Program-made: the position numbers and the translations under genes
The notes under the pieces: generated by a model
The model's database searches: none
What the model saw: only the letters and a program-made list of their open reading frames with translations
Told to the model about the DNA's origin: nothing
Shown here: positions 27,795 to 50,018 of the stretch, piece after piece
Layout: each line of letters begins with the position of its first letter
Position numbering within the stretch: position 1 is the stretch's first letter
Origin: Minisyncoccia bacterium
GTDB lineage: Bacteria; Patescibacteriota; Minisyncoccia; Phycocordibacterales; UBA918
DNA: 64,000 bases
Direction: 5' to 3'
NCBI GenBank assembly: GCA_041742075.1
Contig: JBGSJJ010000015.1
Location: 65,132-129,131, forward strand

Positions 27795-28973
27795 ATGATT
27801 CTCTATTTTGATACTTTCATAACTGAAACTCCGCTTCACAAAAAAGCTCCACCTAAAGATGACGTGCGAGATAAGCACGATATCTATCGGATGCCAAGTA
27901 AAATTGAAATAGCTAAATATTCCTTAGCGAGTTATTCAATATTTTCGTGGTCAAATGTATATATCAAATACGAACTAGAAGATACTAGTCTTACTCTTGA
28001 ATTTGATAATTTTATAAAAGAACTTTTTCCTGAAGTAATTATTGAACATGAAAGAAGTGACTCACAATCTGATTACCAAAATTCTTTAGCAACGCTTAAG
28101 AAATTAAACGACCCGTGGATATTTTACTCTCCTAATAATGATCACCCGTTATTGATTAGTCAAAAAACAGATACCGAATACATCAAACGTTTGGTTGATA
28201 AAGCTGAACAATGGCGAGCTCTTTTTCCGTTTGTTTCTATTATTTATTCCCATTTTGAAGAATACATTAATGCTCCATACCCAAATAGTGCTAATCACCG
28301 CTTCTTTGGTAAAGACATGGTTCTCTTACATGAAGATGACGAGGTCATAATTTGTCTCAAAAAACACGGGGACTTTAATTCAGTTCAAATTGTACACATT
28401 GACTTGTTTTCACATTGGTTTACTTCAAGTGATTTATCCGCTTCAGTCGTTAGGCGGGCGGAAGATTTACATCAAGTGGAAGTAAAAAATCATATCCTGA
28501 TTATACCGAAAAAAAGACTATGCGCGCATTTTGATGGGTATGAGCATATGCAAGGTACCGCAAATGAAATCCTGCAGGATACAAGCCCAGTCCTTTTTAT
28601 CCCACCTGGTTTTTTTGATAAAAAAATTAAAATTGCTTATGGGTATAGTCAGCGGAAAAATGGTTACACAAATATTAATCCAGGAACAAAAAAATATAGT
28701 TTCAGAAATTCAACAACCGGGACTGATCTGAAATTAAGCTTAGCTGAAATACCTTTATTTTGGAAAGACAGAATTAAAGAAATAGATATTAACCCTCACG
28801 CAAACCATCAATTGCTGAACAAAATGGCTAGAGTACATTTTGCAAAACAAAAATATCCTTGGAGTGTTTTTAGTAGAGGACTAAATGGTAAAAATTTTAT
28901 CTTTCAAATTAAGCGGGGTCTAAGGTTTATTAGAGATGAATTTATTACAAAGCAAGGAATACTTCAGAAATAA
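27795..28973 (+). CDS. Hypothetical protein (393 aa), first gene of the AT-rich block, function unknown
   Basis: Long ORF immediately after the fcl stop (track start 27789 is TTG; ATG at 27795). No family recognised. Confidence 0.5.
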   Translation: MILYFDTFITETPLHKKAPPKDDVRDKHDIYRMPSKIEIAKYSLASYSIFSWSNVYIKYELEDTSLTLEFDNFIKELFPEVIIEHERSDSQSDYQNSLATLKKLNDPWIFYSPNNDHPLLISQKTDTEYIKRLVDKAEQWRALFPFVSIIYSHFEEYINAPYPNSANHRFFGKDMVLLHEDDEVIICLKKHGDFNSVQIVHIDLFSHWFTSSDLSASVVRRAEDLHQVEVKNHILIIPKKRLCAHFDGYEHMQGTANEILQDTSPVLFIPPGFFDKKIKIAYGYSQRKNGYTNINPGTKKYSFRNSTTGTDLKLSLAEIPLFWKDRIKEIDINPHANHQLLNKMARVHFAKQKYPWSVFSRGLNGKNFIFQIKRGLRFIRDEFITKQGILQK

Positions 28974-29111
28974 CTTTTCTTTACTAAATTTTTTCTAAAA
29001 CACCGTATATACCCACTTAATAGAATTAAAAAGTCATTTAATTTAGAGCACATATTTAAATAATTTCAATGTGTTTTGAATTATTATTTGGGGTATTCTT
29101 TCAATTTAAGT

Positions 29112-30746
29112 ATGAAAACAAAGGGGTCCACAATAGCCGTAATCCCCGCCGCTGGTATACCTACCAACAAGCTAAACATCCACTCCAACACACCCGATAC
29201 GATGTTGCCCATAAATGGTAAGCCAGTTATTGGTCATATTCTTGATGACCTACTCGCGCGAAAAATTTATCGAGCAGTCATTGTTCTAAACGAACACGAC
29301 CTACACACAGAAAAATATGTCAATCGTAAATATTCTTCCAAACTTAAACTTTCAATTGTACGAAACGCTCTTTATGGTCGGGGTCTCGGGTACTCAATTT
29401 ATCTGGGTTGTCGAGAAATAAGCGACCTTGAATCCTACGATGGAATACTAGTTTATTTAGGAGACACAATTTACAAAGGTGACTTAGACTTTAGTAAAGA
29501 TTTCGTAATTATCAACTCAAATCTAGTGAACAGTCAAAGGTGGTGTTATGTTGAAGAATCCCCTACTGGCCTTACCTATATAAATAAACCCTCCGAATAC
29601 GTTGGCGCTGGAAACCCTTTGGCCGGAATCTATTATTTTTCAAATCCTGAAAAATTAAATAGTGTTGTGAGTAGTGTGGTAAAACGAGAAGCTATTGTTG
29701 AACTTCATTTTATCCTGAGTATATACAATCAACACTTCGCATTAAAGCAAGCTGAACAACACTATGATTGTGGCAATATTGAAAACTATTATCAGGCACG
29801 AATAGACTTTTTACGTACCCGGAGTTTTAATACACTTGAATACAACGATCTGTTTGGAACTATTACAAAATCAGGCACGAATCGAGATAAAATTGAGGAT
29901 GAAATTAACTGGTTTAAGAATGTCCCTCATGAGCTACAAATCTTTACACCCAGATTAATCGATTACACTATTAGTGAATCCAAAGTTTCATATTCTCTAG
30001 AATACTATGGGTATCAGTCTTTAGCGGACTATTTTGTTTTAAATCAATTTGATGAAAAGGTTTGGCAAGTTCTTATTGACCGTCTTTTTACTATACTTAG
30101 TCTGTTTAAAAATTACTCGACACCACTTCCGCACCGAGCGTTTTATGAAATGTATGTAGAAAAAGTAGAAGCTCGAATCAAATTACTAGAGCAAGACGCA
30201 ACCTGGAAAGAACTTCTTTCTAAAGAAACACTTACGATCAATTCGGGTACATACCTTGGCTGGCCCACATATGCTTCTAAAATTTCAAGCTTTGCTGATT
30301 ACCTCTATGATTCCTCAACAGCCAGTTTTATTCACGGAGATTTATGTTTAAGCAACATTCTGTTTGATCCTCATACGTTACTGATAAAACTAATCGATCC
30401 ACGTGGCAAGTTTGGAGACTACACTGTCTATGGCGATCATAACTACGACCTAGCCAAGTTACGACATAGCTTTGTGGGGCTGTATGATTTTATTGTGAGT
30501 GATTTATTTATACTCGATGAGCATGAGAATACATTTCAATACCAAGTACTTTGCGACAAGGACCATGTCGAAATTGGTGAATTATTTGACGCTACTTTAC
30601 AAAAAAGAGGCTATAATACCACTGCGGTTATGTTAATCGAAGCTCTTCTTTTTCTGTCTATGATTCCACTCCATAGTGAGGCCCCAGTTCGACAAAAGGC
30701 AATGTTCTTAACTGGAATTCAACTCTTAAATAAAATTGAACTATGA
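29112..30746 (+). CDS. Bifunctional fusion: N-terminal sugar-phosphate nucleotidyltransferase domain plus C-terminal APH/choline-kinase-fold kinase domain
   Basis: N-terminus STIAVIPAAGIPTNKL...LPINGKPVIGHILDDL is NTP_transferase-like. C-terminus FIHGDLCLSNILFD...IDPRG is the Brenner motif HGDLxxxNIL of APH/choline/hexosamine-1-kinases. Stop overlaps the next gene's ATG (ATGA). Confidence 0.6.
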   Translation: MKTKGSTIAVIPAAGIPTNKLNIHSNTPDTMLPINGKPVIGHILDDLLARKIYRAVIVLNEHDLHTEKYVNRKYSSKLKLSIVRNALYGRGLGYSIYLGCREISDLESYDGILVYLGDTIYKGDLDFSKDFVIINSNLVNSQRWCYVEESPTGLTYINKPSEYVGAGNPLAGIYYFSNPEKLNSVVSSVVKREAIVELHFILSIYNQHFALKQAEQHYDCGNIENYYQARIDFLRTRSFNTLEYNDLFGTITKSGTNRDKIEDEINWFKNVPHELQIFTPRLIDYTISESKVSYSLEYYGYQSLADYFVLNQFDEKVWQVLIDRLFTILSLFKNYSTPLPHRAFYEMYVEKVEARIKLLEQDATWKELLSKETLTINSGTYLGWPTYASKISSFADYLYDSSTASFIHGDLCLSNILFDPHTLLIKLIDPRGKFGDYTVYGDHNYDLAKLRHSFVGLYDFIVSDLFILDEHENTFQYQVLCDKDHVEIGELFDATLQKRGYNTTAVMLIEALLFLSMIPLHSEAPVRQKAMFLTGIQLLNKIEL

Positions 30747-31816
30747 GAATAGTTATCGACCTTGATGGCACCATAGCGTCACTACGAAAGCATAACCAAG
30801 ACTACAGTGAGGTTACACCTTTACCCGGAGTAGTTGAGAAGTTAACTACTTTAAAGGAAGACGGTCACTACCTCATTATCTATAGTGCACGTCACATGAA
30901 GACATGTCAGGGGGACGTTACATTAGTAGAGCAGAAAATCGGCAAGAAAACGAGGGAGTGGCTTAGCACATACAAGATTCCCTACGATGAGCTTATTTTT
31001 GGTAAACCATACGGACATGTCTATATTGATGACCTGGCTATACCATTTCGTGGCTGGGAAAACATTCAATCCACTGAGCTTGATACTGATGTCATCAATG
31101 TGGTAATACCTATGGCTGGTTTAGGAAGTCGCTTTACAAAAGCTGGATTTACTACCCCAAAACCACTCATTGATGTACTTGGCCAACCAATGGTTAAGTG
31201 GGCAGTTGATTCTCTTTCTTTTTTACCTAAACAACCAGTCCAACTTATTTTTATTATTTTACGTGAGCACGAAGTACAATATGAACTTTCAAAGCAACTG
31301 CGCTTGTTGTTTGGTAGCCATATTAAAGTCATTCAAGCTGAGAAATTAACATTAGGACAGGCTGATACAGTCTACCTCGCTAAAGATTTTATAAATAATT
31401 TTAGTAAATTATTTATTTTTAACTGTGACACGTTCAGCCAAACACCGGATTTATGGGAACATATTACTGAGATTGACCCAGACTGTACCTTAGCTTGTTT
31501 TACGTCCACCGACGCACGCTATAGCTACGCAAAACAAGATTCGTACGGCTACGTTGAAGAAACAGCTGAGAAAAAGGTTATTTCTAACAACGCCTCTACT
31601 GGTCTGTATTACTTCAAACATGGCTTCTACTTTATCGATGAAGTAGAAAAAGCGCTTCAGTCATACCAACCAGACCAAGGTGAAATTTACATCGCTCCAC
31701 TGTATAATAATCTGATAAAACTGGGAAAAAAGGTGACTATTTCAGAGGCTAGTGAAAACTGGATACTTGGGACACCTGAAGAACTGGATTATTTTAAAAC
31801 CCACTACCGAAAGTAA
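30743..31816 (+). CDS. Bifunctional fusion: N-terminal HAD-superfamily phosphatase (DxDGT) plus nucleotidyltransferase domain
   Basis: MRIVIDLDGTIA (HAD motif I), IYSAR (motif II), GKPYGHVYIDD (motifs III/IV). Then VVIPMAGLGSRFTKAGFTTPKPLIDVLGQPMV is an NTP_transferase G-loop. Confidence 0.6.
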   Translation: MRIVIDLDGTIASLRKHNQDYSEVTPLPGVVEKLTTLKEDGHYLIIYSARHMKTCQGDVTLVEQKIGKKTREWLSTYKIPYDELIFGKPYGHVYIDDLAIPFRGWENIQSTELDTDVINVVIPMAGLGSRFTKAGFTTPKPLIDVLGQPMVKWAVDSLSFLPKQPVQLIFIILREHEVQYELSKQLRLLFGSHIKVIQAEKLTLGQADTVYLAKDFINNFSKLFIFNCDTFSQTPDLWEHITEIDPDCTLACFTSTDARYSYAKQDSYGYVEETAEKKVISNNASTGLYYFKHGFYFIDEVEKALQSYQPDQGEIYIAPLYNNLIKLGKKVTISEASENWILGTPEELDYFKTHYRK

Positions 31817-31860: not shown

Positions 31861-32520
31861 ATGCAATTTATATCTAAAACAAAATACAAAATAAAACTCT
31901 TATTTACAGATCCGGTGAAATTAGCTGGCATACTAAAAAATATGCTAAAAATGGCCTTTGTAAGTAAGGTTGATACTGGCCCTGAAGGGATACGGTGGAC
32001 TACTGAAATTGAAAAAAACCTCTTACAAAAATATGCTAAAAGTGCCCAGATTGGAATCGTAGAAATTGGTGTACTTGATGGAAAGACTACCAAGGAAATG
32101 GCCCTCGTTGCCAATGTGCCACTTTATGGAATCGACCCTCTGATACCAGACAGTATGAATAGAAGATTAATCGGTACGGAAGAAAAAGTTTTATCAAACT
32201 TAGCCTTTTATGAAAAATTTTATTTTATAAAAGACTTTAGCTACAACGTGGCCAAAAACTGGAGTAAACCTTTTGATTTTATCTTTATAGATGGTGACCA
32301 CACCTATGAAGCCGTAAAAAAAGATTTTGAAGACTGGTACAACCTCATCTCTCCTCAAGGATTCATTGCATTTCATGACTCTCACGCAATCACCGTTGAT
32401 GGGAAAGAAGTATTTGCCGGCTGGGCTGGTTGCGTACAATTTGTTTCAGAGTTAAAAGATGACCCTCGAGTTAACTTTGTAGAAGTGCAAGATTCGATTA
32501 CTGTTTTTCAAAAAAAATAA
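31861..32520 (+). CDS. Class I SAM-dependent methyltransferase (CmcI / Methyltransf_24-like)
   Basis: IVEIGVLDGKTT...FDFIFIDGDHTYEAVKKDFEDW...GFIAFHD. Confidence 0.65.
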   Translation: MQFISKTKYKIKLLFTDPVKLAGILKNMLKMAFVSKVDTGPEGIRWTTEIEKNLLQKYAKSAQIGIVEIGVLDGKTTKEMALVANVPLYGIDPLIPDSMNRRLIGTEEKVLSNLAFYEKFYFIKDFSYNVAKNWSKPFDFIFIDGDHTYEAVKKDFEDWYNLISPQGFIAFHDSHAITVDGKEVFAGWAGCVQFVSELKDDPRVNFVEVQDSITVFQKK

Positions 32521-32526
32521 TCTATT

Positions 32527-33825
32527 GTGCCGAAATCTCTTCTCCGAAAACTAGCGACCAGAAACAATTTTTCGCGAGACGGAATCATTCGCTACGCGCA
32601 GAATACTGGGTGGGTCTTTTTTGGCAAGTTTAGCAACCTCGCGATTAGTTTTTTTGCCACCTTATACATCGCTCGCTCACTTGGTCCCGGCAACTACGGT
32701 GAACTGAGCTATGCGCTTAGTTTCATTGGTCTCTTTTCGTTCATCTCTTCTTTAGGAATTGATTCGGTGCTCTACCGAGAAATCATAAAATACCCCGAGC
32801 AAAAAAATGCTCTCCTTGGTACCGCATTTCGCATTAAACTCATCGCTGGGAGCATCACCGCTGTTCTTACTATTGCTACCGCCTTGTTTCTCTCTCCACC
32901 AGACGTTTCATTTCTTATTATTGTTATTCTATCGAGTACCTTTATCGTCCATACGTTTTCAATCATTTCGTATGAATTTGGCGCCGCGGTAAACAATAAA
33001 CCTGTTTCCATACTGTCTTTTTTTGTTACAGCTCTAGTAAATGTACTGAAGATTATTGTCATCTTCTTCGGTAACGGCGTCCTCTACCTAGCACTCATCA
33101 TTGTCGCTGAAACTCTCTTTTATGCGCTTGGGTATATCTATATTCGCTTCCGTGCGTTTGGTAGCGTCTTTAATTGGACCTATAACCACACTACCGCCAA
33201 GAGACTCCTCCTTGATTCTTGGCCATTTATTTTTACCAGCGCTTTTTCTGTTATTTATACTCGCATTGATCAGGTATTGCTCAAAAACATGATTGACGCC
33301 ACAACTGTCGGTGTTTACGACGCGGCGGTGCGTTTAAGTGAACTCTGGCACTTCTTTCCAGCCGTACTGGTCGGAACGCTCTTCCCGGCGATTATTAATG
33401 CCAAAAAGTCAGCTCACGCTCAGTACAGACAGCGCATTGTGTCTCTTATAATACTTCTACTATCGCTCTCGGTCTTTGTCGCGATTGCAGTGACGTTCTT
33501 AGCCAAACCAATTGTGCTCCTGGTATATGGTGCTGAGTTTGCTCCCGCAATTCCTATCTTACAAATCTACATCTGGGCCTTTGTGCCCGCCACCCTTGGC
33601 GTGATAGCTCAGCACTATCTCTTAGCTGAAAACGCGCGTGTCGCACTTTTCCTCATGACCCTAGTTGGGATGGTAGTCAATGTAGTTGGTAACCTCGTCC
33701 TTATTCCTGAATATGGTGCAATCGGGGCCGCTGTTGCTACCTTAATCTCGAGTACGAGTATCATTATGGTCGTCATACTCATCTATTTTTTAAAGCGCTT
33801 TACTCGTATACTACGTACACGTTAA
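32527..33825 (+). CDS. wzx: Wzx-type polysaccharide/oligosaccharide flippase (polysaccharide biosynthesis protein family, ~12 TM). GTG start.
   Basis: 432 aa polytopic membrane protein with the typical Wzx N-terminus (…YAQNTGWVFFGKFSNLAISFFATLYIARSLGPGNYGELS…). Confidence 0.72.
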   Translation: MPKSLLRKLATRNNFSRDGIIRYAQNTGWVFFGKFSNLAISFFATLYIARSLGPGNYGELSYALSFIGLFSFISSLGIDSVLYREIIKYPEQKNALLGTAFRIKLIAGSITAVLTIATALFLSPPDVSFLIIVILSSTFIVHTFSIISYEFGAAVNNKPVSILSFFVTALVNVLKIIVIFFGNGVLYLALIIVAETLFYALGYIYIRFRAFGSVFNWTYNHTTAKRLLLDSWPFIFTSAFSVIYTRIDQVLLKNMIDATTVGVYDAAVRLSELWHFFPAVLVGTLFPAIINAKKSAHAQYRQRIVSLIILLLSLSVFVAIAVTFLAKPIVLLVYGAEFAPAIPILQIYIWAFVPATLGVIAQHYLLAENARVALFLMTLVGMVVNVVGNLVLIPEYGAIGAAVATLISSTSIIMVVILIYFLKRFTRILRTR

Positions 33826-33829
33826 ATCT

Positions 33830-34693
33830 ATGAAATCAAAAGCCCTCATCACCGCCTGTTCAAACAAATTCTTTCCGTCGGTTATAAACCTCCTGACCTC
33901 AATTAAGGTTAATTACCCGGACCACCCAGTCATTTACGTCTATGACTTAGGTCTTTTCTACACCTTTAGGAAAGAGCTGGAGATGATTGATGGTGTAACC
34001 GTACTTCCCATGCCTCATTTTTGCTCTCACTGGAGATCTTGTTACACCTGGAAAACATATATTTTTGCGCACCCCATCGCTGACCTCAACTTCTATCTCG
34101 ATGCAGGCTGTCACGTACTGAAACCCCTTGATGCCGATTTTGCTATCATTGAAAAAGACGACGTACTCTTGATTGACCAAGAGCAAACCTTTGCAGACAT
34201 CGTGCCAAAAAGTTACAAAGAGATGTTTGCTATAGGAGACGAGTTTGACACACTGACCATCATGCACGCCGGTATCATTGGTTTCAGCAACAGCGAAGAA
34301 GCCGGTCAGATTTTTGCAAAAATCTATTCCGCTGGTATTGCTGGTCTAGCGCTTGGGTTTTCTCCAGGTGATAGTTGGCGAAATAAAGGCCCCGATAAAT
34401 CTGTATTTGTGCGTGATTGTCGCCTATTCCGGCACGACTTAACCTTAGTAAATATCTTTTTCAGAAAGTACTGGCCTCATATAAGCATTCAGTCCCTAGA
34501 GACCTACCACGGCGGGCTACTCAACTCACCCACCCAGCGTATATGGCACCTTCGGCTCAATTGGAAACGGTTGCCATACATGTCAATTAAGAAAATTCAT
34601 CCCAAAGTAAGCTTTTTCCCTTTTATAAATCGTATAATTATTGTAAAAATGGTTTATTTAAGAAAGATATTTCATTACCTGAAAGGTATTTAA
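33830..34693 (+). CDS. Hypothetical protein, possibly a nucleotide-diphospho-sugar (GT-A-like) transferase
   Basis: 287 aa. Start LITACSNKFFPSVINLLTSIKVN and YLDAG resemble GT-A capsule transferases. Weak. Confidence 0.4.
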   Translation: MKSKALITACSNKFFPSVINLLTSIKVNYPDHPVIYVYDLGLFYTFRKELEMIDGVTVLPMPHFCSHWRSCYTWKTYIFAHPIADLNFYLDAGCHVLKPLDADFAIIEKDDVLLIDQEQTFADIVPKSYKEMFAIGDEFDTLTIMHAGIIGFSNSEEAGQIFAKIYSAGIAGLALGFSPGDSWRNKGPDKSVFVRDCRLFRHDLTLVNIFFRKYWPHISIQSLETYHGGLLNSPTQRIWHLRLNWKRLPYMSIKKIHPKVSFFPFINRIIIVKMVYLRKIFHYLKGI

Positions 34694-34707: not shown

Positions 34708-35661
34708 CTATTTTTCAATTAATTTCGATAGCTCTAAACAAATTCCCTCAACTGACGTGTACTCTGGAGTATACCCAACACTCTCTGCTTGATAGTTTTT
34801 TGAATAATAGATATTTTTCGAAAATTTATTGCCACCTCGAATTGGGTCAGATGAAATTTCATATCGTAAATCAAACTTTTCTTGAAGCTCATTAAGCAAA
34901 TCGAGCTTGGCTACCGGAGCCTTGCTGTAAACATCTAAGGCCGTGTTGCTTGGTGACCGCATAACACATTGAATGAGTTGATGGAGGTCAGTAGGCGAAA
35001 TATAGTCCCGAATGATATCGGTGTCGTTGGTTTTAAATACCTTATTGGAAATAAGGCAATCAGCAATCTCTGACATCAAAAATTCAGCTTCCGTATCGAC
35101 AAACTTACTAAAAAACGCAAATACGCGCAAATCGATGATGGTATAGTTTGCTAGTGCACGATGTCTCGCTTCAGCATGTAACTTAGCAATCGAGTAGTAC
35201 TCCGATACCTTGAACTCATTAACAGAGAAGGTGGCTTTGGTTTCTTCTGTTATAGGGGCACTAAAATTATCTCCATACACCGCCCCACTACTCAGGTTGA
35301 TGTACACTGCTTCGGGATTTTTTCTTAAGTAAGAAAGAATGAGTGTGTCAACAGATTCAGTAAGGGTAAAAATACTTGCCGGCTCGTCACCCAATACTTT
35401 TGTATTTCCGATTCCTGTCGCGTTAATGATCACATCAAAGCTCCCGTATTGAAACTCTGATATGTCGCAAAGTCTAATTAAACGCCCTTTTTCAATATCT
35501 TTAAAATCTAAAATAGTTTTCTCTAATTTTGAAATGTCTCGCGAATAAAGGTAGAGCTCAGTGTCAGAGTTATTTACTAAAAACTCTGCGAGTAGTGATT
35601 TCCCGATATAGCCGGTCGCTCCCAAAAGCGCCAGTTTTCTAACATTAAGATTACTTGTCAT
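34708..35661 (-). CDS. NAD(P)-dependent epimerase/dehydratase-family (extended SDR) protein
   Basis: LALLGATGYIGKSL is a Rossmann motif. YSIAK is YxxxK. 317 aa. Confidence 0.7.
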   Translation of the reverse strand: MTSNLNVRKLALLGATGYIGKSLLAEFLVNNSDTELYLYSRDISKLEKTILDFKDIEKGRLIRLCDISEFQYGSFDVIINATGIGNTKVLGDEPASIFTLTESVDTLILSYLRKNPEAVYINLSSGAVYGDNFSAPITEETKATFSVNEFKVSEYYSIAKLHAEARHRALANYTIIDLRVFAFFSKFVDTEAEFLMSEIADCLISNKVFKTNDTDIIRDYISPTDLHQLIQCVMRSPSNTALDVYSKAPVAKLDLLNELQEKFDLRYEISSDPIRGGNKFSKNIYYSKNYQAESVGYTPEYTSVEGICLELSKLIEK

Positions 35662-36286: not shown

Positions 36287-36296
36287 ATTTGTAAAA

Positions 36297-38687: not shown

Positions 38688-38691
38688 ACAT

Positions 38692-41349: not shown

Positions 41350-41453
41350 ATATTGTATAACCCCAAAAGTAGCTTGAAGTATACAGATAGAGTGTATATC
41401 TGCAACCTGCACGAACCAAATCGGATATTGATGTACATTTGAGCCAAAAAGAA

Positions 41454-41532: not shown

Positions 41533-42210
41533 CTACAACGAGTCACGCGTGCGGAAATACTCAATGAGCTCTTCCAGGGTGGCGTGCGGGGTGAACGTCG
41601 CACTATCCCTGTCAGCGTACCTAATCACGCGGTCAAACTCTTCGCGCATGTGAACGTCGATGAGTGTACCTGAGAATGGAGTTCCATTGAGGACACCCTT
41701 CGTCGCAATCATCTGCCAATTGATGGTCGCAAGAGTCCTGGTGTAAACCTTCAATTTTGAACTGGCCCGCTCCAAGCAGAACACCATTTGGAGCATACAT
41801 CGCAGAATGTGATGCGGATAACTCATGATAGTCAAACTTTCCCAGCCATTCTCTTCTGCCAGTTTAATCAGGTTGGCGCTCTCTGTCGCCGTATACTTCG
41901 ACGGCTGGATCATGAGAAAATCTTCGCAACCCAAATCATAGAGTACTCTACCCCATGTACCAGAGCCTGGATACGCTAAACGCTGGCCGTTTGGCCAACA
42001 CTCCGCGTCCGAAAGACCATTAATTACGACACAACCTGTTTCACCTACACGGGACATTTGAACTGCTGTACGCAGAAGTTCGGTGTCAATTTCATCGTTC
42101 GCTGCCGGTGAGCCATGAACGAACACGGCGTCGGTTTTTTCACGCCTATCAAGGAGCACGAGAAGTTGCGCTCGAGCGTAGTTGAGCGGATCAATTGAGT
42201 AAACGGTCAT
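41533..42210 (-). CDS. Hypothetical protein, possibly DUF218/YdcF-like
   Basis: 225 aa. Higher-GC than its neighbours. Loose resemblance to the DUF218 core (AVFVHGSPAANDE). Confidence 0.4.
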   Translation of the reverse strand: MTVYSIDPLNYARAQLLVLLDRREKTDAVFVHGSPAANDEIDTELLRTAVQMSRVGETGCVVINGLSDAECWPNGQRLAYPGSGTWGRVLYDLGCEDFLMIQPSKYTATESANLIKLAEENGWESLTIMSYPHHILRCMLQMVFCLERASSKLKVYTRTLATINWQMIATKGVLNGTPFSGTLIDVHMREEFDRVIRYADRDSATFTPHATLEELIEYFRTRDSL

Positions 42211-42494: not shown

Positions 42495-43733
42495 ATGGCA
42501 ACAAAAAAAACTCCACCTGCAAAAAATAAACTACGTGTGCCCTATGGTTTCTCTGTCCATGGCCAAGAAGAAATCGATGCAGTTGTTGAAGTTCTCAAAG
42601 GTAACACCGCACTTGGTGAAAAAACTCAAGTTTTTGAAGAACGAATTGCCAAGATGTTTGGTAAAAAATACGGTGTAATGGTGAACTCTGGTTCGTCAGC
42701 TAACTTGCTCGCTTTTGAACTACTGCAATTACCACCTGGCTCTGAAGTCATTACCCCTATCTTAAGTTTTGCCACGGTGGTTGGTCCGATTGTTCAAAAA
42801 GGACTGACTCCGGTCTTTGTTGATGTTGATCCAGACACCTATAACGTAAATGTAGACGCAGTTGAGAAAGCTATCAGTAAAAAAACTAAGGCGCTCATGA
42901 TTCCTTCACTCATGGGTAACATTCCTGACCTGCCAAGACTCCACACCTTAGCGAAAAAGCACAAACTCGTTTTGATTGAAGACTCTTGCGATACGCTTGG
43001 TGGCACCATCAACAAAAAGCCAACTGGTATGTTTTCGGATATATCTATCACAAGCTTCTATGGTTCTCACATCATCAATGGAGCTGGTGGCGGAGGTATC
43101 ATCATGGTCAACAACCCAGAGTGGGCCAATCGTCTTAAGGTACTTCGTGGTTGGGGGCGCCAGTCTTCCCTGTTTGGTGAAAAGGGTAATTCTGAATTAC
43201 TTAAGAATCGCTTCAATACAAAACTAAATGGCATAGCGTATGATGCCAAGTTTATTTTTAGTTCAATCGGCTACAACTTTTTACCGCTCGAGATTTCTTC
43301 AGCCTTTGCTTTAGCACAACTAAAAAGATTGCCTGGCTTTCTCGCGTTACGCCTGAAGCACTACAATCGACTCTACGAATTCTTTAGTGGTCACCAAGAC
43401 TTCTTTATCCTGCCACGCCAAACCCCGGCTACAACAACTGCTTGGCTGGCGTTCCCACTCATCATCAAACCAAAAGCTCCCTTCACTCGACTAGAATTAG
43501 TTACATTTTTAGAAGAGCAAAACATTCAAACCCGTCCTGTCTTTACCGGCAACATCCTCAAGCAACCAGGTTTTAAGAGGATAGCCCACCGAAAAGCGAC
43601 ACCAACTTTCCCAAACACCGAACTCGTTATGAGAAATGCTTTTGTGGTTGGTTGCCACCAAGGACTCACGGAGGAACAGATTACGTATATGCAAAATTGC
43701 TTTGAAACGTTTTTAGCGAAATACAAAAAGTAA
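42495..43733 (+). CDS. rfbH: DegT/DnrJ/EryC1-family PLP/PMP enzyme with the hallmark of CDP-4-keto-6-deoxy-D-glucose-3-dehydrase (E1, RfbH/DdhC): His in place of the Schiff-base Lys
   Basis: Aspartate-aminotransferase-fold motifs (VNSGSSANLLA, IEDSCDTLGG) are present. The catalytic position reads SITSFYGSHIINGAGGGG, where canonical aminotransferases have SF(H/Y)xxK. Encoded next to ddhA/ddhB. Confidence 0.65.
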   Translation: MATKKTPPAKNKLRVPYGFSVHGQEEIDAVVEVLKGNTALGEKTQVFEERIAKMFGKKYGVMVNSGSSANLLAFELLQLPPGSEVITPILSFATVVGPIVQKGLTPVFVDVDPDTYNVNVDAVEKAISKKTKALMIPSLMGNIPDLPRLHTLAKKHKLVLIEDSCDTLGGTINKKPTGMFSDISITSFYGSHIINGAGGGGIIMVNNPEWANRLKVLRGWGRQSSLFGEKGNSELLKNRFNTKLNGIAYDAKFIFSSIGYNFLPLEISSAFALAQLKRLPGFLALRLKHYNRLYEFFSGHQDFFILPRQTPATTTAWLAFPLIIKPKAPFTRLELVTFLEEQNIQTRPVFTGNILKQPGFKRIAHRKATPTFPNTELVMRNAFVVGCHQGLTEEQITYMQNCFETFLAKYKK

Positions 43734-43743: not shown

Positions 43744-44727
43744 ATGAGCTCTCCAGTTTTAAGTATCTGTATACCGACCTATAATCGGTCCCATTACCTC
43801 AAGCGATGTCTCGATAACATTGTTGAGCATTTTAAACAAAACCCCGAACTTAAAAACATGGTAGAAGTGGTCGTTTCTGATAACTGCAGTACCGATGAGA
43901 CAGGAGTAATTGTCCACTCATTCGCAGAAAAAATACCTCTTTTGGTCTACACGCGAAACCAGGAGAATATTGGGTTTGACCGCAACATCAAAGAAGTTGT
44001 TACTAAAGCCAGTGGCCGGTATTGCTGGTACTTAGGTGACGATGACCTAATTATTCCTGGCGCTTTAAAAGTTGTCTTCGATAAATTTGCTACCAACAAG
44101 TACGATCTCATCACGATGAACTCTCTTCCTTTATGGGATGTGAGTGGTATTATTCCGCCACAAAGCTACACAGAAGAAAGTTTTGTTGAACTTCAAGATC
44201 ATAACGAATTCTATTTTCGTGTCTACTGCCAGGGGGGTGTCAGTGTCCTCGCTTTCTCTCGAGAGCTTTGGCTTCAGCTCGTAACAATGGAAAATTATTT
44301 GGAGCATTGGCTCTACTATGAAAATGTGCTGAAAATTCTTGCGAACTCCAACAAACCAAAAGTATTTGTTGCTACTCCCGTTATTGCCACTGGGCAAGAT
44401 TGTCGCTGGGCTGAGAATGGTACGGAATTATTTACTTTTGTGAACTCTATAGTTTTGTTACAAAGAATGACTAGCTATGGATTTGATAAGGGGCGTATTC
44501 AAAATGATGTAGCTCGAAATAGTAAGTTCCTGATTATTATGGTACTAAGAGCTAAAGGGCATGGACTTGCGTGCAATCGGAAAAATTTTAAGTATATGTA
44601 CACACATATGAAAAAGCTTGTTCCAATTCGGTTACTCATAGCTTCAGCCATTTTTTTTATTCCAAACAAACTCATTGTTTTAGTTCGAGACCTGAGAAAA
44701 ACTCTTTTTAATCTAAAGAAAGCTTAA
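43744..44727 (+). CDS. Glycosyltransferase family 2
   Basis: LSICIPTYNRSHYLKRCLDNI...VVVSDNCSTDETG...YLGDDD (DxD). Confidence 0.8.
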   Translation: MSSPVLSICIPTYNRSHYLKRCLDNIVEHFKQNPELKNMVEVVVSDNCSTDETGVIVHSFAEKIPLLVYTRNQENIGFDRNIKEVVTKASGRYCWYLGDDDLIIPGALKVVFDKFATNKYDLITMNSLPLWDVSGIIPPQSYTEESFVELQDHNEFYFRVYCQGGVSVLAFSRELWLQLVTMENYLEHWLYYENVLKILANSNKPKVFVATPVIATGQDCRWAENGTELFTFVNSIVLLQRMTSYGFDKGRIQNDVARNSKFLIIMVLRAKGHGLACNRKNFKYMYTHMKKLVPIRLLIASAIFFIPNKLIVLVRDLRKTLFNLKKA

Positions 44728-44880
44728 TGGCTAAATATCATTCAGAAGTTTTGTGTATCGAGGGATCTGGCTGGATATAGGCTTTTAAAGCAGTCTGGAT
44801 ATAGATAGGTATTTTGGGATAACTTAAAGAGCTACTATAAACTTACGAAAAACTTTACTAGACCGGCAAGAAAAAAACAT

Positions 44881-45921
44881 ATGCAAAAATTCAACAAAAT
44901 TGTCGTGATGCCAGTACGAAATGAAGAGTGGATACTTGAGAAGACCCTCTCGGTCTTGTCATTATTTGCTGACTACATCATTGTGGCCGATCATAATTCT
45001 ACCGACAGAACAGCCGAAATCTGTAGTAAATTTCCCAAGGTAAGGGTTATAAAAAACGACGCAAAATTTCAGTCGAGCCATATTAGAGGGACGTTACTTG
45101 AAAAAGCGCGAGAGATTGAGGGTAACAACGTCATATTTAGTATCGATGCCGATGAGGTTCCGACAGCAGATATACTAAATGACGAGTTCTGGAAAGAGAT
45201 AGAAAAGATGCCACCTGGTACTGCCATTGAGATGCAGTGGATCAATCTTTGGCGATCATTTACAGAATACCGAGACGACAATTCAGTCTGGGCAAACAGC
45301 TATAAAGTTTTTGGGTTTGTTGATGACCGCCAGTCAAACTTTGTAAGTAAAGCTGGAGACTATGACCATGTATCGAGGGTACCTATTGATGTACTCAAGA
45401 ATATAAAGCGACTTGAAAGTCCTAAGGTCATTCATTTTCAATTTATTGACTGGGAAAAAGTACTCGTGAAGCAGGCTCACTATCGAGTGATTGAATACCT
45501 ACAGAGAAAAAAGGGTTTCATGAATGCTTTTAAAATAAACGTGCGCTATTACTCCTACCGGGAAGACAAAGATGTGAAAACTTCTCCCGTTCCCACTTCC
45601 TGGCTTCATGAGTACGAGCAAAAAGGGCTCGACCTGTGGCATTTCCCAAAAAATAAACTTTCTTGGCTTGATGTTGACACCCTCAAGTTTTTTAAAGAGC
45701 ACAGCCCTCAGCATTTTAGATGGCTTGACGTTTGGGACATAGACTGGGAAACAAAACGACTCCTCGCACTACACGAGGGTATCGATAGTGTCCCTACGGG
45801 TCCTATTATCGATCCTCGGTCATGGTACATACGATACTATCACTCATATGTCCAACAATTTTTTAGTTATAATAGTGTATTGTACAGAGCTTATCGGTAT
45901 AGTATAAAATTTGTTAAATAA
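44881..45921 (+). CDS. Glycosyltransferase family 2-like (Glyco_tranf_2_4-type)
   Basis: IVVMPVRNEEWILEKTLSVL...IIVADHNSTDRT...SIDADE. Confidence 0.55.
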   Translation: MQKFNKIVVMPVRNEEWILEKTLSVLSLFADYIIVADHNSTDRTAEICSKFPKVRVIKNDAKFQSSHIRGTLLEKAREIEGNNVIFSIDADEVPTADILNDEFWKEIEKMPPGTAIEMQWINLWRSFTEYRDDNSVWANSYKVFGFVDDRQSNFVSKAGDYDHVSRVPIDVLKNIKRLESPKVIHFQFIDWEKVLVKQAHYRVIEYLQRKKGFMNAFKINVRYYSYREDKDVKTSPVPTSWLHEYEQKGLDLWHFPKNKLSWLDVDTLKFFKEHSPQHFRWLDVWDIDWETKRLLALHEGIDSVPTGPIIDPRSWYIRYYHSYVQQFFSYNSVLYRAYRYSIKFVK

Positions 45922-45950
45922 TAAGCCTCCAATTAGGCAAGAAACATCAT

Positions 45951-47066
45951 ATGGAAAAAACTAAAAGCTATTGGTTTGGCAAAAGAGTGCTTGTTACAGG
46001 AGGAGACGGTTTCCTGGCAACACACTTAACAAAAACACTCTTAAAAGAAGGTGCGATGGTTACTATTACCGTTCGCCATAAGCGACCATTTACTACGGCT
46101 GAACTACTAACAGACACCGAGGAAAATGTTGGTACTCCCGATATTGAACATTTTGACATTCTTGACTTGACTGCTCTGCGAAGAGTTTGTGAGCGGCACC
46201 AGATAGACACCATATTTCACTTAGCTGCATCCGCTATTGTTTCAGACGCAGCCAATTCCCCATTTTCAACAATGGAAAACAATGTAGTTGGTACACTCAA
46301 TATTCTTGAAGTAGCCCGCATCAATAAAATACCAAGAGTCCTGATTGCCTCTTCAGACAAGTCCTATGGAGACCACTATAAAGATGACAAGGAAGGATTG
46401 CCGTACAGAGAAAGCTATGCGCTTCGAGGACTCGATGTCTATAGTTCTTCTAAGGTGTGTACTGACATGATTACTCAGACTTATTCCTACCAATTTAAAA
46501 TACCCGCGATTATTACCAGAGCCTGCAATATGTATGGCCCAGGAGATTTAAACTTTTCACGTCTCATTCCAAAAACGTCGATGTGCCTTCTTGCTAGCAA
46601 GCCGCCCATGATTAATGAAGGGAGTGCAAACGTTTTGCGAGAATACATTTATGTAGATGATGTAGTTAACGCATACATGTTTCTTATGGAGAATGTTGCT
46701 GACTATTACGGAGAGAATAACGTAAACATGCCTCGGGATGGCAAAACAACGTATGGTTGGGCAGCCTTTAATGTGGGGAGTTATGGAGCTGAAGAAATTA
46801 AGTCTGTTGAAAAATGCGCAAACATAAAGAGTGTTACTGACGTGATAAATCTCCTTCGAACTAAAATCGCAGACGTTGAGCCAACAGTCCAGGGTCGCCC
46901 CGATAATTTTATCGAAATTCCTGATCAATTTCTTGATTCTTCAAAGCTGATTAATTTCGGCTTCAAGACCAAAACCTCGTTTGAAGAGGGTCTCGGTAAA
47001 ACAGTAGACTGGTACGCAAAAAATTATGCAGTGCTCGAGAATATGGCTTTCAAGTATACCAAATAA
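45951..47066 (+). CDS. NAD-dependent epimerase/dehydratase (extended SDR), putative NDP-4-keto-sugar reductase/epimerase
   Basis: FGKRVLVTGGDGFLATHL, YSSSKVCTD (YxxxK). Confidence 0.7.
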   Translation: MEKTKSYWFGKRVLVTGGDGFLATHLTKTLLKEGAMVTITVRHKRPFTTAELLTDTEENVGTPDIEHFDILDLTALRRVCERHQIDTIFHLAASAIVSDAANSPFSTMENNVVGTLNILEVARINKIPRVLIASSDKSYGDHYKDDKEGLPYRESYALRGLDVYSSSKVCTDMITQTYSYQFKIPAIITRACNMYGPGDLNFSRLIPKTSMCLLASKPPMINEGSANVLREYIYVDDVVNAYMFLMENVADYYGENNVNMPRDGKTTYGWAAFNVGSYGAEEIKSVEKCANIKSVTDVINLLRTKIADVEPTVQGRPDNFIEIPDQFLDSSKLINFGFKTKTSFEEGLGKTVDWYAKNYAVLENMAFKYTK

Positions 47067-47099
47067 TATTGCAGACGTTAACTATAGTGTAAAAAACTC

Positions 47100-48002
47100 A
47101 TGAAAATTATTATTACTAGTCTCATTAGTCTAACCAATAAATTTTTAAAGAATAAAAAAATATTTCTTTATACTCCAAACAAGCATAATGGTTTTGGAAA
47201 GACTGCTGTTAAAACAAAATTTGGTTTTTGGTATGTAGGAGATATCCTCGATCAAAGAGATATCGCTTGTGGTATTTTACGATATGGTGAAATCGAACCC
47301 GAAGAGACTGCACTCACTATAAAGATTTTTAAGTACCTAAATCAAAAAGCTAACCCAGTTATCTATGACATCGGAGCCAATACTGGGTACTACGGATTAT
47401 TGGCTGCTCATTTTTTTGAGAAACAAGTTTCAGTGTATTCTTTTGAGCCAGTCAAAGAGTTTGCCGACTGTATCGACGAAACAGCAAAGATAAATGGTTT
47501 CAGTGACTGCATTCATGTCTGCAATTTTGCACTCAGTGACAAGAATGGAACTGGTGAAATATATGTATGGGGAACCTGTTCAAGTCTCGATAAAGACTTT
47601 AATAATAAAGACCTGCCGACACAAACTATCGAACTTAAAAGGCTTGACGGTTTTGCAGAAAGTGTTTCTCCAGACTTTATAAAAATAGACACGGAAGGCC
47701 ATGAACTACTTACACTCGAAGGGGCTATTGAAACTATTTCAAAAAGTAAGCCTCTGCTATTTGTTGAAATCATAGAAAGACTCAAAATGAGAAATTTTGT
47801 CAATCAAGATTACTCGAAAACAATTCAGCTTTTACTAAACATTGGGTACGAAGCCTATCTTTTCAAAAACGGTAAACTAGAGAAGACCGATGGTAGCCTA
47901 ACAATTGAAGGCGTGTATATGTACTTATTCATACATAAAGACAAGCATAAAGATTTTCTGAAATACTTAAATGTGTCTGACGAGAAAATATCTTCTAACT
48001 AA
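47100..48002 (+). CDS. FkbM-family methyltransferase
   Basis: IYDIGANTGYYGL...YSFEP...IKIDTEGHELLTLEGA. Confidence 0.7.
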   Translation: MKIIITSLISLTNKFLKNKKIFLYTPNKHNGFGKTAVKTKFGFWYVGDILDQRDIACGILRYGEIEPEETALTIKIFKYLNQKANPVIYDIGANTGYYGLLAAHFFEKQVSVYSFEPVKEFADCIDETAKINGFSDCIHVCNFALSDKNGTGEIYVWGTCSSLDKDFNNKDLPTQTIELKRLDGFAESVSPDFIKIDTEGHELLTLEGAIETISKSKPLLFVEIIERLKMRNFVNQDYSKTIQLLLNIGYEAYLFKNGKLEKTDGSLTIEGVYMYLFIHKDKHKDFLKYLNVSDEKISSN

Positions 48003-48013
48003 ATTTTAAATGT

Positions 48014-48949
48014 ATGACCTCTGAACTACTACACAAAAACATCAAGCTAGTTCGTGCGGTAATACCTTTATCACTTCGTCGCTTAGTAGGACCATATATT
48101 GCGTATAGTGCATATATATGGAGAGTGTATATAACCAAAAATAAAAATGCCCCAAAAATTCTTTCACTTGAAGAAACAATTGACATTATTATAGCTAATG
48201 AACTTTCAGCAATTCGTTTTGGTGATGGTGAAATGTCCCTTATTGAAAATGAACAACTTAATTTTCAGCAAACAAACAGTCAATTGTCTTACAAACTAAG
48301 AGCAATCCTGCAGATACATACACCCGCGTTACTCATCTGCATTCCCGGCATTTGGGGAAAGTTAAACGGTTACACCAAAGTTTCGTACTGGTTTATTTTG
48401 CATCACCTATTCCGCCACGGTCATGTTTGGAGAGGTCTGTTATCAAGTAACCAAACCTATGGTGACGCTTATATCACAAGACCATATCTAGGTTATAAAG
48501 ATAAATCGCATAGTGGTAGTATTTTTAAAAAGTTGTTCTCAATATGGGCAGGAAAAAAAGTTGTCCTCATTGAAGGTAAAAAAAGTCGGCTCGGTGTAGG
48601 TAATGATATGTTTAACAATGTGCAAAGTCTGAAACGAATCCTCTGTCCAGCGGAAAATGCCTATACAAAATATGCTGAAATAATGACGGAAGCCTTGAAG
48701 ATACCGAAGGATTCATTAGTGTTACTTTCGGTAGGTCCGACTGCAAAAGTATTAGCCTATGACTTGTTCATGGCCGGATACAGAGTGATTGATATTGGGC
48801 ACATCGACATGGAATACGAAATGTTCTTGCGGTCTTCCTCCACCCTTGTTAAAGTGCCGTATAAGTATTTTAATGAAATAAATGAACTCAATCCGCAAGA
48901 CTGTCTTGATGATACCTACCTGTCCCAGATTATTGCAAAAGTAGTATAA
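48014..48949 (+). CDS. Putative GT-D-fold glycosyltransferase (DUF1792-like)
   Basis: SAIRFGDGEMSLIE motif and ~310 aa size. Confidence 0.45.
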   Translation: MTSELLHKNIKLVRAVIPLSLRRLVGPYIAYSAYIWRVYITKNKNAPKILSLEETIDIIIANELSAIRFGDGEMSLIENEQLNFQQTNSQLSYKLRAILQIHTPALLICIPGIWGKLNGYTKVSYWFILHHLFRHGHVWRGLLSSNQTYGDAYITRPYLGYKDKSHSGSIFKKLFSIWAGKKVVLIEGKKSRLGVGNDMFNNVQSLKRILCPAENAYTKYAEIMTEALKIPKDSLVLLSVGPTAKVLAYDLFMAGYRVIDIGHIDMEYEMFLRSSSTLVKVPYKYFNEINELNPQDCLDDTYLSQIIAKVV

Positions 48950-48962
48950 TACGAGTCTGACC

Positions 48963-50018
48963 GTGAAAAAAATCCGCGTAAAATTTTTAAAGTTTGGCAG
49001 TGCTGACCATACGACACCAGGATCATATGCTAATCTTTTTTATTCTCTCCTTCAAAAAAAGTACGAAGTCGAGATATCAGAAACGCCTGATTATATTTTC
49101 TACCATGAATCATCTGATGAACACTTGAACTATAATTGCGTAAAAATTTTCTATACCGGTGAAAATGTCTCACCAAATTTTAACTTTTGTGATTACGCCA
49201 TTGGTTTTGATTGGCTTGATTTTAGTGACCGTTACTATCGTTTTCCAATCTATCTAAATGCTATCTACTATCGACCAGAAGAAATAACTCAATCCGCAAA
49301 TATAGACTGGACAAAACCTGCCAACCTTACTCGTGCTGATATGGAAGCAAAAACGGAATTTTGTAGCTTTGTCTACTCTAACTATCGTGGCGAACTGGCC
49401 CGTCAGTCTTTATTTGATGCACTTAGTGTTTACAAAAAAGTGAACGCCGGCGGTGCGTATCTCAATAACGTTGGTGGGCGCGTAGAGAACAAACTGGCTT
49501 TTGAAGCTAAACATAAGTTTTCGATTGCTTGTGAAAATTCATCACGCTCAGGCTATACAACTGAAAAAATCATTGGTTCTTTTTTAGCTAAAACTATCCC
49601 TATCTATTGGGGCGACCCAGACGTCGCCAAGCAGTTTAACCCAAAGCGGTTTATTAATTGTCATGACTTTAAAAGTTTTGACGAGGTACGTACCCGAGTA
49701 GCCGAAATAGATGAAGATGATGACCTCTACCTGAGTATGGTAAATGAACCAATAACGATCCCTGAGTACAACTTTACAAAAGTTCATGAGGGCCTTGAAG
49801 CTTTTCTTCAACATATTTTTGACCAGCCTGTTACAGACGCTAAGCGAGCGACCATTAACCCAAATCGACTCGCAGAAATGGAAAAACGAGAACATGTGGC
49901 CAGTTGGTATACCGGCGCTCAATTAAAACTCATCCAAGTCAGTGCTAAAATCTACCAACCTCTTAAAAAGTTTCCTTGGTTTGAGAAACTAAAACATACA
50001 CTTTTTCAAAGTAAGTAG
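48963..50018 (+). CDS. Alpha-1,3(/4)-fucosyltransferase, glycosyltransferase family 10. GTG start.
   Basis: KFSIACENSSRSGYTTEKIIGSFLAKTIPIYWG matches the GT10 signature motif (FxxxFENSxxxxYxTEK). The GDP-fucose genes are in the same locus. Confidence 0.7.
   Translation: MKKIRVKFLKFGSADHTTPGSYANLFYSLLQKKYEVEISETPDYIFYHESSDEHLNYNCVKIFYTGENVSPNFNFCDYAIGFDWLDFSDRYYRFPIYLNAIYYRPEEITQSANIDWTKPANLTRADMEAKTEFCSFVYSNYRGELARQSLFDALSVYKKVNAGGAYLNNVGGRVENKLAFEAKHKFSIACENSSRSGYTTEKIIGSFLAKTIPIYWGDPDVAKQFNPKRFINCHDFKSFDEVRTRVAEIDEDDDLYLSMVNEPITIPEYNFTKVHEGLEAFLQHIFDQPVTDAKRATINPNRLAEMEKREHVASWYTGAQLKLIQVSAKIYQPLKKFPWFEKLKHTLFQSK

Follow-up and report, generated by a model that had tools for sequence, protein, structure and literature searches.

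An AT-rich block in a Patescibacteria genome is probably an old, mosaic and replaceable surface-glycan cassette

The contig JBGSJJ010000015.1 of a Minisyncoccia bacterium (assembly GCA_041742075.1) carries, within the 64-kb stretch of DNA that we analysed (hereafter the window), an AT-rich block of 22.2 kb embedded in a locus for a surface glycan. This block is probably an old, mosaic and replaceable surface-glycan cassette, of a kind whose compositional equilibrium lies lower than that of the core genome. Island-prediction methods routinely infer a foreign donor from low G+C, and an earlier note on this DNA had read the block in the same manner, as horizontally acquired from a low-GC donor. 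The block fails this inference. Its compositional contrast is old and maintained and is no un-ameliorated mark of a recent import, because the relative C083 shares the cassette, its junctions and its drop in G+C, with synonymous sites saturated between the two. Comparison with a diverged relative thus separates 'compositionally odd' from 'recently acquired', and we regard the persistence of the compositional gap as the most interesting point of the locus. Relatives are labelled L- for fetched loci or C- for contigs, C083 being the Joint Genome Institute (JGI) contig Ga0645779_03013; the search with fcl, the gene on the left edge of the block, covered 185,579 species genomes.

The block was taken as positions 27795-50018 of the window and the flanks as 1-27794 and 50019-64000. 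Two genes adjoin it and serve as anchors throughout:

26833..27792, + strand: fcl, GDP-L-fucose synthase, the left anchor; its stop codon is the left edge of the AT-rich cassette.
50026..51039, + strand: R01, a GT4-like glycosyltransferase, the right anchor; G+C 0.503.

Mean G+C is 0.390 in the block, 0.484 in the left flank and 0.471 in the right flank, and along 1-kb windows G+C passes from 0.44-0.52 to 0.33-0.45 across 28-50 kb and back to 0.44-0.50. Sliding-window G+C therefore confirms the AT-rich block and the near-half-G+C flanks that the earlier note had described by eye; its figure of about one third G+C suits sub-stretches of the block (0.33-0.36) and is too low for the block mean of 0.39, the Wzx/hyp287, rfbF/G and dehydrase genes lying at 0.41-0.45. 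Maximum-likelihood segmentation with two boundaries set the edges at 27757 and 50039, within ~40 bp of those first drawn, and improved the log-likelihood by 241 nats relative to a model of one composition. The same note had placed both edges at gene boundaries, and the junctions agree: the fcl stop codon TGA is followed after 2 nt by the ATG of the first block gene, B01, and the stop codon TAG of the last, the GT10 gene B21, which is the right edge of the cassette, is followed after 7 nt by the ATG of R01. Across the left junction, G+C changes from 0.469 in fcl to 0.334 in B01.

The shift extends to codons, residues and oligonucleotides. Median G+C at third codon positions (GC3) is 0.363 for the 21 block genes, named B01-B21 (range 0.26-0.55), versus 0.486 for the 28 other genes (Mann-Whitney p = 5e-6) and 0.502 for the 11 glycan genes in the two arms (p = 9e-5). 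Codons ending in G or C are rarer in the block for 18 of 18 degenerate codon families, and the residues F, Y, M, I, N and K (FYMINK) make up 32.8% of the block proteins versus 24.7% elsewhere. Tetranucleotide usage, normalised for composition, was compared with the flank profile; r was 0.37-0.78 for 4-kb segments of the block and 0.72-0.86 for flank segments, a comparison that is supportive only, since the flank segments contribute to the flank reference profile and their r is somewhat inflated. Codon and k-mer usage, for which the earlier note had proposed profiling, both deviate from the window flanks. It could be argued that such figures carry no history at all, and that low G+C simply follows from the encoded proteins, membrane proteins and glycosyltransferases with many residues of AT-rich codons, or from weak expression coupled with little codon bias; the FYMINK enrichment would suit this, and glycan loci are generally lowly expressed. 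We hold this to be highly improbable, as the shift reaches the third positions of every one of the 18 codon families and the Wzx flippase is the sole membrane protein among the block proteins. Furthermore, glycan genes of the arms belong to the same enzyme classes, with R01-R05 on the same strand, yet have host-like GC3, and the DJ-1, TPP (thiamine pyrophosphate) enzyme and B11 genes, at 0.35-0.39 G+C here, are at 0.41-0.45 in L090.

As the window is part of a metagenome-assembled contig, it might also be supposed that mis-assembly had joined the AT-rich block of another organism to it, an explanation whose probability we consider negligible. The left junction is crossed at 100% identity in two independent Logan assemblies (SRR28170465 and SRR28170474), both junctions are present in the diverged JGI-sample relative C083 and in an NCBI metagenome-assembled genome (MAG), and the architecture is shared among relatives. 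Because independent assemblies span the left junction and relatives carry both junctions, the block is no assembly artefact.

The age of the contrast is established by C083, the closest relative, in which gmd is 90%, fcl 83% and R02 83% identical. For the most part its cassette has the gene order of the window cassette (B01-B07 68-89% identical, B16-B21 62-78%), it has the same junctions between fcl and B01 and between the GT10 gene and R01, and it combines arms of 0.48-0.49 G+C with a cassette of 0.377. Between the two loci, both the arm genes and the cassette genes are saturated at synonymous sites (proportion of synonymous differences, pS, 0.68-0.86), which makes synonymous divergence (dS) unusable for dating cassette against arms; nonsynonymous divergence (dN) is 0.08-0.33 in the cassette and 0.06-0.40 in the arms, two overlapping ranges. 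Cassette genes have a GC3 of 0.26-0.47 and arm genes one of 0.41-0.67 in both loci. On a two-state-model estimate, a passive G+C gap would have decayed to ~e^-2 of its size (<~15%) once each lineage had accumulated one or more synonymous substitutions per site.

These observations bear directly on the proposal that the whole 22-kb block was recently acquired from a low-GC donor outside the lineage and that its low G+C is an un-ameliorated signature. Such a proposal would lead one to expect what the block shows, namely edges that are sharp and lie at gene boundaries, G+C lower by 9 points and altered usage of codons and tetranucleotides, and the dip in the window exceeds those of all GTDB relatives (z = 3.15). 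We nevertheless judge it very improbable. C083, with an fcl 17% different, has the same cassette, junctions and low G+C; the cassette proteins are no more similar to those of C083 than the arm proteins are, and a passive gap would have decayed. No integrase, tRNA or repeats accompany the block, and nearly all homologues of the TPP enzyme that carry a name come from Patescibacteria. In this respect the horizontal gene transfer (HGT) from a low-GC donor advanced in the earlier note does not hold as a recent event, given the collinear low-G+C cassette of C083 and the saturated synonymous sites, nor does the best-hit taxonomy that it had suggested indicate another phylum as donor: judged from matches of block genes in the fcl-anchored loci of relatives and from one global search, with the TPP enzyme B10, the best homologues are in Patescibacteria. 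Named global matches of B10 come from Paceibacterota, Magasanikbacteria, Gracilibacteria, Berkelbacteria and Woesebacteria (best 79%), with one Verrucomicrobia MAG at 59%.

The arms on either side of the block identify both the host and the site. The best fcl matches are Patescibacteria MAGs at 74-80% identity, labelled Paceibacteria, Parcubacteria, Kaiserbacteria, Nomurabacteria or 'Saccharibacteria'. In the collections searched, the nearest fcl outside this organism is 83% identical, anything closer being an identical copy of this organism, and fcl returned no relative of genus-level closeness. Twenty loci were taken as syntenic on the strength of matches upstream of gmd-fcl to obg, secA, murB and Wzy_C/TPR, all four or only some, within the reach of each contig, and their secA is 57-71% identical to that of the window. 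Because the fcl matches and the syntenic left arm are found in Patescibacteria MAGs, we assign the host to the Paceibacteria-type Patescibacteria (candidate phyla radiation, CPR). The left flank of the window holds gatB, obg, secA, murB, the Wzy_C/TPR gene, a cytidylyltransferase/MPI-like gene, gmd and fcl, and upstream of gmd-fcl in relatives murB was matched in 19 loci and Wzy_C/TPR in 29. Apart from the two anchors, the arms consist of:

18136..21434, - strand: murB and a Wzy_C-domain/TPR membrane protein (candidate glycan polymerase or ligase), the conserved left arm.
23584..24675, + strand: gmd, GDP-mannose 4,6-dehydratase (Pfam PF16363, E=2e-151; G+C 0.51), located upstream of fcl in most relatives.
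51041..54315, + strand: R02 FkbM methyltransferase, R03 DUF268 methyltransferase, R04 GT11 fucosyltransferase and R05 GT2 glycosyltransferase, the right arm, G+C 0.47-0.49.

Beyond R05 the window continues with a short-chain dehydrogenase/reductase (SDR), a GT4 glycosyltransferase, CofD, an LTD/PKD surface protein and a TraG-like ATPase. The R01 family has 131 matches, and its named members are all Paceibacterota or Taylorbacteria. R01 lies at the right end of the variable region in five relatives (C083, C016, C085, L091 and L092), and the series R01-FkbM-DUF268-GT11-GT2, followed further on by GT4-CofD-LTD/PKD-TraG-like, is complete in four of these and in C083 runs to the end of the locus (GT4 and the start of CofD). 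Scanning JGI metagenomes with R01 returned a single distant locus, at 39% identity and with a similar overall layout.

What lies between the arms changes from relative to relative. When fcl-centred and R01-centred loci were joined per contig, three were complete and C083 had a 2.2-kb gap, giving five with the window; the variable stretch measures 22.2 kb in the window, 22.2 kb in C083, 18.8 kb in C016, 18.0 kb in C085 and 19.2 kb in C010. Gene content between the anchors differs in L085/L089, L086, L091 and L092, is partly related in C016 and is of the same type in C083. As judged from gene content and order, the block is a replaceable central cassette between two arms conserved across family-level relatives, and what the earlier note had recognised as a block in a glycan locus proves to be the variable part of that locus. 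The window contains no tRNA or tmRNA and no Rfam family, no direct or inverted repeats beyond chance-size matches flank the block, and no integrase or transposase Pfam match was found in it. An integrative mobile element (integrative and conjugative element, prophage or integrase-borne island) was accordingly ruled out for want of a tRNA, att-like repeats, an integrase or a transposase. Because its arms are conserved, its middle is variable and no tRNA, flanking repeat or integrase is present, the architecture is that of an O-antigen/capsule-type replacement island and not of an integrative element.

The cassette itself is composed of modules, described here from a Pfam scan of the 49 open reading frames (ORFs) of the window. 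The strand layout is + for B01-B06, - for B07-B14 and + for B15-B21:

27795..28973, + strand: B01, a soluble 392-aa protein with no assigned family, the first gene of module 1; 76% identical in C083.
29076..31816, + strand: B02 (556 aa, N-terminal nucleotidyltransferase) and B03 (fusion of a HAD-type capsule phosphatase and a sugar-1-phosphate nucleotidyltransferase).
31861..34693, + strand: B04 Methyltransf_24 methyltransferase, B05 Wzx flippase (11 transmembrane-like segments) and B06, a 287-aa protein without assigned family.
34708..35661, - strand: B07, SDR epimerase/reductase (candidate ketoreductase); 68% identical in C083.
35651..39459, - strand: module 2, with B08 HAD hydrolase, B09 DJ-1/PfpI protein, B10 YerE-like thiamine diphosphate (ThDP, or TPP) enzyme and B11 (255 aa).
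39512..41412, - strand: module 3a, with B12 RfbF glucose-1-phosphate cytidylyltransferase and B13 RfbG CDP-glucose 4,6-dehydratase.
41533..42210, - strand: B14, 225 aa, probably of a divergent DUF218-like family; G+C 0.506.
42495..43733, + strand: module 3b, B15, a 412-aa RfbH-like DegT enzyme, a 3-dehydrase of E1/ColD type dependent on pyridoxamine 5'-phosphate (PMP).
43744..50018, + strand: module 4, with B16 GT2, B17 GT2, B18 SDR (4,6-dehydratase-like), B19 FkbM methyltransferase, B20 GT-D and B21 GT10 fucosyltransferase.

The Wzx, the fusion enzymes and the several transferases that the earlier note had listed inside the block are all recovered by Pfam (B05; B02 and B03; two GT2, one GT-D and one GT10). 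B01 has no Pfam or NCBIfam match; it was considered as a Wzy polymerase and rejected, as it contains no hydrophobic, transmembrane-like segments. The C-terminal part of B02 (~350 aa) is uncharacterised and the phosphatase part of B03 is EcbF/BcbF-like; the two genes, which are kept together in C083 (80-82%), C085 (52-53%) and L003 (51-54%), form a putative pair for activation of a nucleotide sugar or alditol. B04-B06 are 77-89% identical in C083 and 66-70% in C016. Module 2 is the part of the block lowest in G+C (0.34-0.39), and cupin-family matches of B11 are all sub-threshold. Module 4 keeps its order in C083, and the GT-D and GT10 genes also precede R01 in C016.

The nearest relative differs from one module to the next. 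It is C083 for B01-B07 and for B16-B21, with B07 the last left-side gene common to the window and C083, which then continues with a TPP enzyme only 43% identical and is without the HAD (B08) and DJ-1 (B09) genes. For module 2 it is L090, where B08, B09, B10 and B11 are 54, 90, 79 and 78% identical; outside this module L090 is more distant (Wzx 44%, rfbF 64%, rfbG 50%). For rfbF, rfbG and the dehydrase it is C016 (84, 73 and 74%), whose arms are more distant than those of C083, and the rfbG of C083 is 59% identical to B13. Because nearest relatives are discordant in this way, we interpret the modules as having been exchanged by recombination among Patescibacteria. The mosaic assembly by HGT that had been proposed thus stands as an internal mosaic of modules with discordant relatives, and falls as regards a foreign donor of low G+C.

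AT-richness recurs at this locus in relatives. In 18 of the 20 syntenic GTDB loci, G+C is lower in the 10 kb after fcl than before it, with a mean drop of 0.028 (paired t p = 9e-6). The cassette is lower than the arms in all five complete loci, arms ranging over 0.397-0.488 and cassettes over 0.355-0.407, and this includes hosts of low G+C: in C016 the cassette is at 0.355 and the arms at 0.42, in C085 at 0.375 and 0.40. Because the offset is found in 18 of 20 syntenic and five of five complete loci, low-GC hosts among them, AT-richness is a property of this locus class and no fingerprint of one donor. The most serious competing account invokes repeated import, such that the lineages of the window and of C083 separately and fairly recently acquired related cassettes from AT-rich Paceibacteria by double crossover in fcl and R01; the low G+C would then be that of the donor genomes and no equilibrium of the locus itself. 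Low-GC relatives (C016 and C085) do carry homologous modules, the modules have discordant nearest relatives, and the range of cassette G+C across the five complete loci is narrower than that of the arms, all of which would fit. We consider this account unlikely, though deserving of more weight than a single foreign import: even hosts of the lowest G+C have a cassette poorer in G+C than its arms, with the reverse in only 2 of 20 loci, whereas simple mixing among hosts predicts equal positive and negative offsets, and separate imports would make it a coincidence that cassette divergence from C083 equals arm divergence.

Several observations weigh against the reading of an old cassette with its own lower equilibrium. 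Across the wider set, G+C after fcl follows host G+C (r = 0.84), and the cassettes of L011, L018 and L090 are nearly host-like in G+C; because of this tracking, and of such host-like cassettes, the 'own equilibrium' is an offset and no constant. With synonymous sites saturated, it is possible that independent imports of orthologous cassettes into the lineages of the window and of C083 fit the divergence levels too. Conservation of the site is seen at family level and the nearest fcl is 83% identical, so that no within-species replacement of the cassette was seen. For the composition of the host, the 42 kb of the window that lie outside the cassette are the sole source. Finally, the 49 window ORFs include no initiating phosphoglycosyltransferase, as indicated by the lack of any Bac_transf/MraY-like Pfam match, although such a gene may lie elsewhere in the genome.

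With these points taken into account, we still prefer the old, replaceable cassette and can outline how it might operate. The left arm, ending in gmd-fcl, would supply GDP-fucose, and the right arm would open with the lineage-specific, GT4-like R01. The cassette between them would contribute the type-specific parts, namely Wzx, methyltransferases, the GT2, GT-D and GT10 transferases and two nucleotidyltransferase fusions. It would have been at this site since at least the split from C083, and cassettes would be re-assorted module by module through homologous recombination among Patescibacteria, with no mobile element involved. As to the AT offset, alternative cassettes may seldom recombine homologously and so experience less GC-biased repair, with weaker codon selection and AT-biased mutation acting in addition; in our view the case for this cause is evenly balanced. 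Exchange of modules within the same AT-rich pool would add to the offset. That a locus-specific evolutionary regime keeps cassettes at their own lower equilibrium (GC3 ~0.3-0.4 versus ~0.5 nearby on the same strand) is a tentative proposal, to which we give slightly less credence.

The cassette contains candidate enzymes for a deoxygenated sugar. B12 matches the RfbF model (NCBIfam TIGR02623) with 417 bits against a cutoff of 300, and B13 the RfbG model (TIGR02622) with 445 bits against 278. The best PDB match of B15 is the E1 dehydrase 3BCX (E=9e-77). B15 has a His aligned with H220 of E1, a position occupied by Lys in the 3BB8 variant, and a Cys-free segment aligned with the Cys-rich E1 segment DCYCAPGCDNTC, whose cysteines we take to be ligands of the Fe-S cluster; against the RfbH model it scores 353 bits, under the cutoff of 423. 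No E3 reductase (DdhD/RfbI) was recognised, as no window ORF has a Fer2, FAD_binding_6 or NAD_binding_1 match. The earlier note had seen an entire CDP-dideoxyhexose pathway in the block; RfbF and RfbG support it to that extent, while the window has no recognised E3 reductase and the dehydrase lacks the putative Fe-S cysteines. Because the His is kept, the aligned segment is free of Cys and the window has no E3 reductase, B15 probably carries out an E3-independent, ColD-like 3-deoxygenation of a CDP-sugar. In C083 (L087 1338-3069), the rfbH-like gene looks broken up into a 109-aa DegT fragment and short ORFs, compared with the intact 412-aa B15, and the dideoxy-sugar branch may be decaying there.

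For B10, the best solved relative is JanthE (8RPH), with 407 bits versus 257 for the best acetolactate synthase, and B10 is below the cutoff of all acetolactate synthase equivalog models. JanthE is a YerE-like enzyme (PMC12188165). Together with the SDR B07 at the far end of the same operon, B10 suggests a yersiniose-like, acyl-branched 3,6-dideoxyhexose: CDP-glucose would be converted to a 3,6-dideoxy-4-keto sugar by the ColD-type dehydrase, after which the YerE-like enzyme would add the acyl branch. Because the locus contains gmd/fcl, GT10, GT11 and several methyltransferases, the final product is probably a fucosylated, methylated heteroglycan.

B14 departs from the composition of its surroundings, with a G+C of 0.506 and a GC3 of 0.553, and the G+C-richer patch pointed out in the earlier note is therefore real. 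B14 itself has no match to PF02698 or any other Pfam family, even at E=10; its own family has 202 cluster representatives at E<=1e-3 among 1.84 billion clustered proteins, and 25 of 60 aligned members match PF02698, DUF218 (best E 1.3e-8). DUF218 proteins are YdcF/ElyC/SanA-like. The AlphaFold2 (AF2) model has a predicted local distance difference test (pLDDT) score of 95.7, and Foldseek returned no significant match in the PDB. BLASTP found B14 similar neither to the HD-domain gene that takes the corresponding position in C016 nor to the DUF218 gene of C083. In L062, from another Patescibacteria genome, a B14 homologue directly adjoins an rfbH-like gene and has a G+C of ~0.37 that matches its surroundings. 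Because of that neighbour, and of the DUF218 genes in the C083 and C085 cassettes, we assign B14 functionally to the sugar module. Its host-like composition is compatible with later replacement from a G+C-richer cassette, the earlier note having suggested a later patch, and its divergent DUF218-like family may deserve a family description of its own.

Other features of the window lie in the arms and beyond them. The spacer between gmd and fcl (24676-26832; in L083, 8071-9805) is a second, small variable spot with three or four small genes in the window, among them an 85-aa ORF (~24763-25020) with weak matches to ParE/YafQ toxins and a Dabb-domain gene, and a perfect 21-nt inverted repeat (24702-24746) directly follows gmd. 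Relatives have Fic genes in this spacer, and Fic/RhuM and MazE just upstream. In L090 (16177-18021, - strand), the cytidylyltransferase/MPI-like gene and gmd are fused in one 614-aa ORF, and because of this fusion the CTP_transf_like/MPI protein of the left arm (22721-23533) hints at a role in the GDP-mannose/fucose supply line. On the right, the CofD-like gene, the LTD/PKD surface protein and the TraG/VirD4-like coupling ATPase (57725-62332, - strand) keep their order in L088, L089, L091 and L092; because the gene order is the same in these four relatives, we place the TraG/VirD4-like ATPase (60.3 kb) in the conserved neighbourhood and do not regard it as a mobile-element remnant. A giant ORF of 2768 aa near the left end (1313-9619, - strand) has no Pfam match at E<=1e-3 and no homologue in the fetched loci of relatives, and its G+C at second codon positions (GC2) is 0.544 compared with ~0.38-0.42 in neighbouring genes.

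The locus is of interest beyond its composition. A CPR bacterium with a reduced genome devotes ~35 kb to a fucose-rich, probably methylated, branched-sugar surface glycan, and a conserved variable site suggests that the cell surface is under strong pressure to diversify, whether from phage, attachment to a host or grazing. The anchors fcl and R01 offer practical markers for retrieving such cassettes from metagenomes. If the own-equilibrium reading is true, the locus would provide a clean natural system for asking why O-antigen-type loci are AT-rich, and ultra-small episymbiotic bacteria would be found to keep serotype-like diversity in their surface glycans. In our literature search, no description of a variable glycan island in CPR/Patescibacteria was found.

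The locus can be compared with three known systems. The sugar pathway resembles that of Yersinia pseudotuberculosis (ddhA-D, yerE and yerF) in having equivalogs of RfbF/DdhA and RfbG/DdhB, an E1-type dehydrase whose catalytic Lys is replaced by His, a YerE-like ThDP enzyme and a nearby SDR, here separated by the HAD and DJ-1/PfpI genes. It differs in that the window lacks DdhD and that the dehydrase is without the E1-aligned cysteines and below the RfbH cutoff. The enterobacterial O-antigen clusters (galF-gnd) and the pneumococcal cps loci (dexB-aliA) are analogues of the island as a whole. A fixed site, alternative cassettes, low G+C and mosaicism are general properties of that family, and low-GC, variable polysaccharide clusters are textbook examples for Gram-negative O-antigens and capsules. 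The locus described here shares the fixed site with conserved flanks and alternative cassettes, the combination of nucleotide-sugar genes, glycosyltransferases and Wzx, the G+C below that of the genome and the mosaic structure from recombination. Unlike those loci, it belongs to a Patescibacteria host, the window shows no recognisable initiating transferase, Wzz or JUMPstart-like element, and the Wzy_C-domain protein lies in the conserved arm, outside the cassette. To our knowledge, Patescibacteria are generally thought to lack an outer membrane and lipopolysaccharide (LPS), and for this reason a glycan linked to the wall, a lipid or a protein is more likely.

The third system, the glycan islands of the Pelagibacterales (PMC11898729, PMC4033161), belongs to another phylum with another envelope and is documented by hundreds of single-cell genomes from one population, compared with a handful of MAG contigs here, and module exchange within the cassette is more evident in the Patescibacteria. 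The resemblance is otherwise close, as both are variable glycan islands at a conserved site in a small genome. In Pelagibacterales, the G+C of O-chain clusters is significantly below the genome average even without plausible donors of lower G+C (PMC11898729), and for shared island types the distance between loci approximates that between genomes, implying long vertical inheritance (PMC11898729), the same pattern as that between the window and C083. The locus is thus of a well-known and ordinary kind, an O-antigen-like replacement island, in an unusual host.

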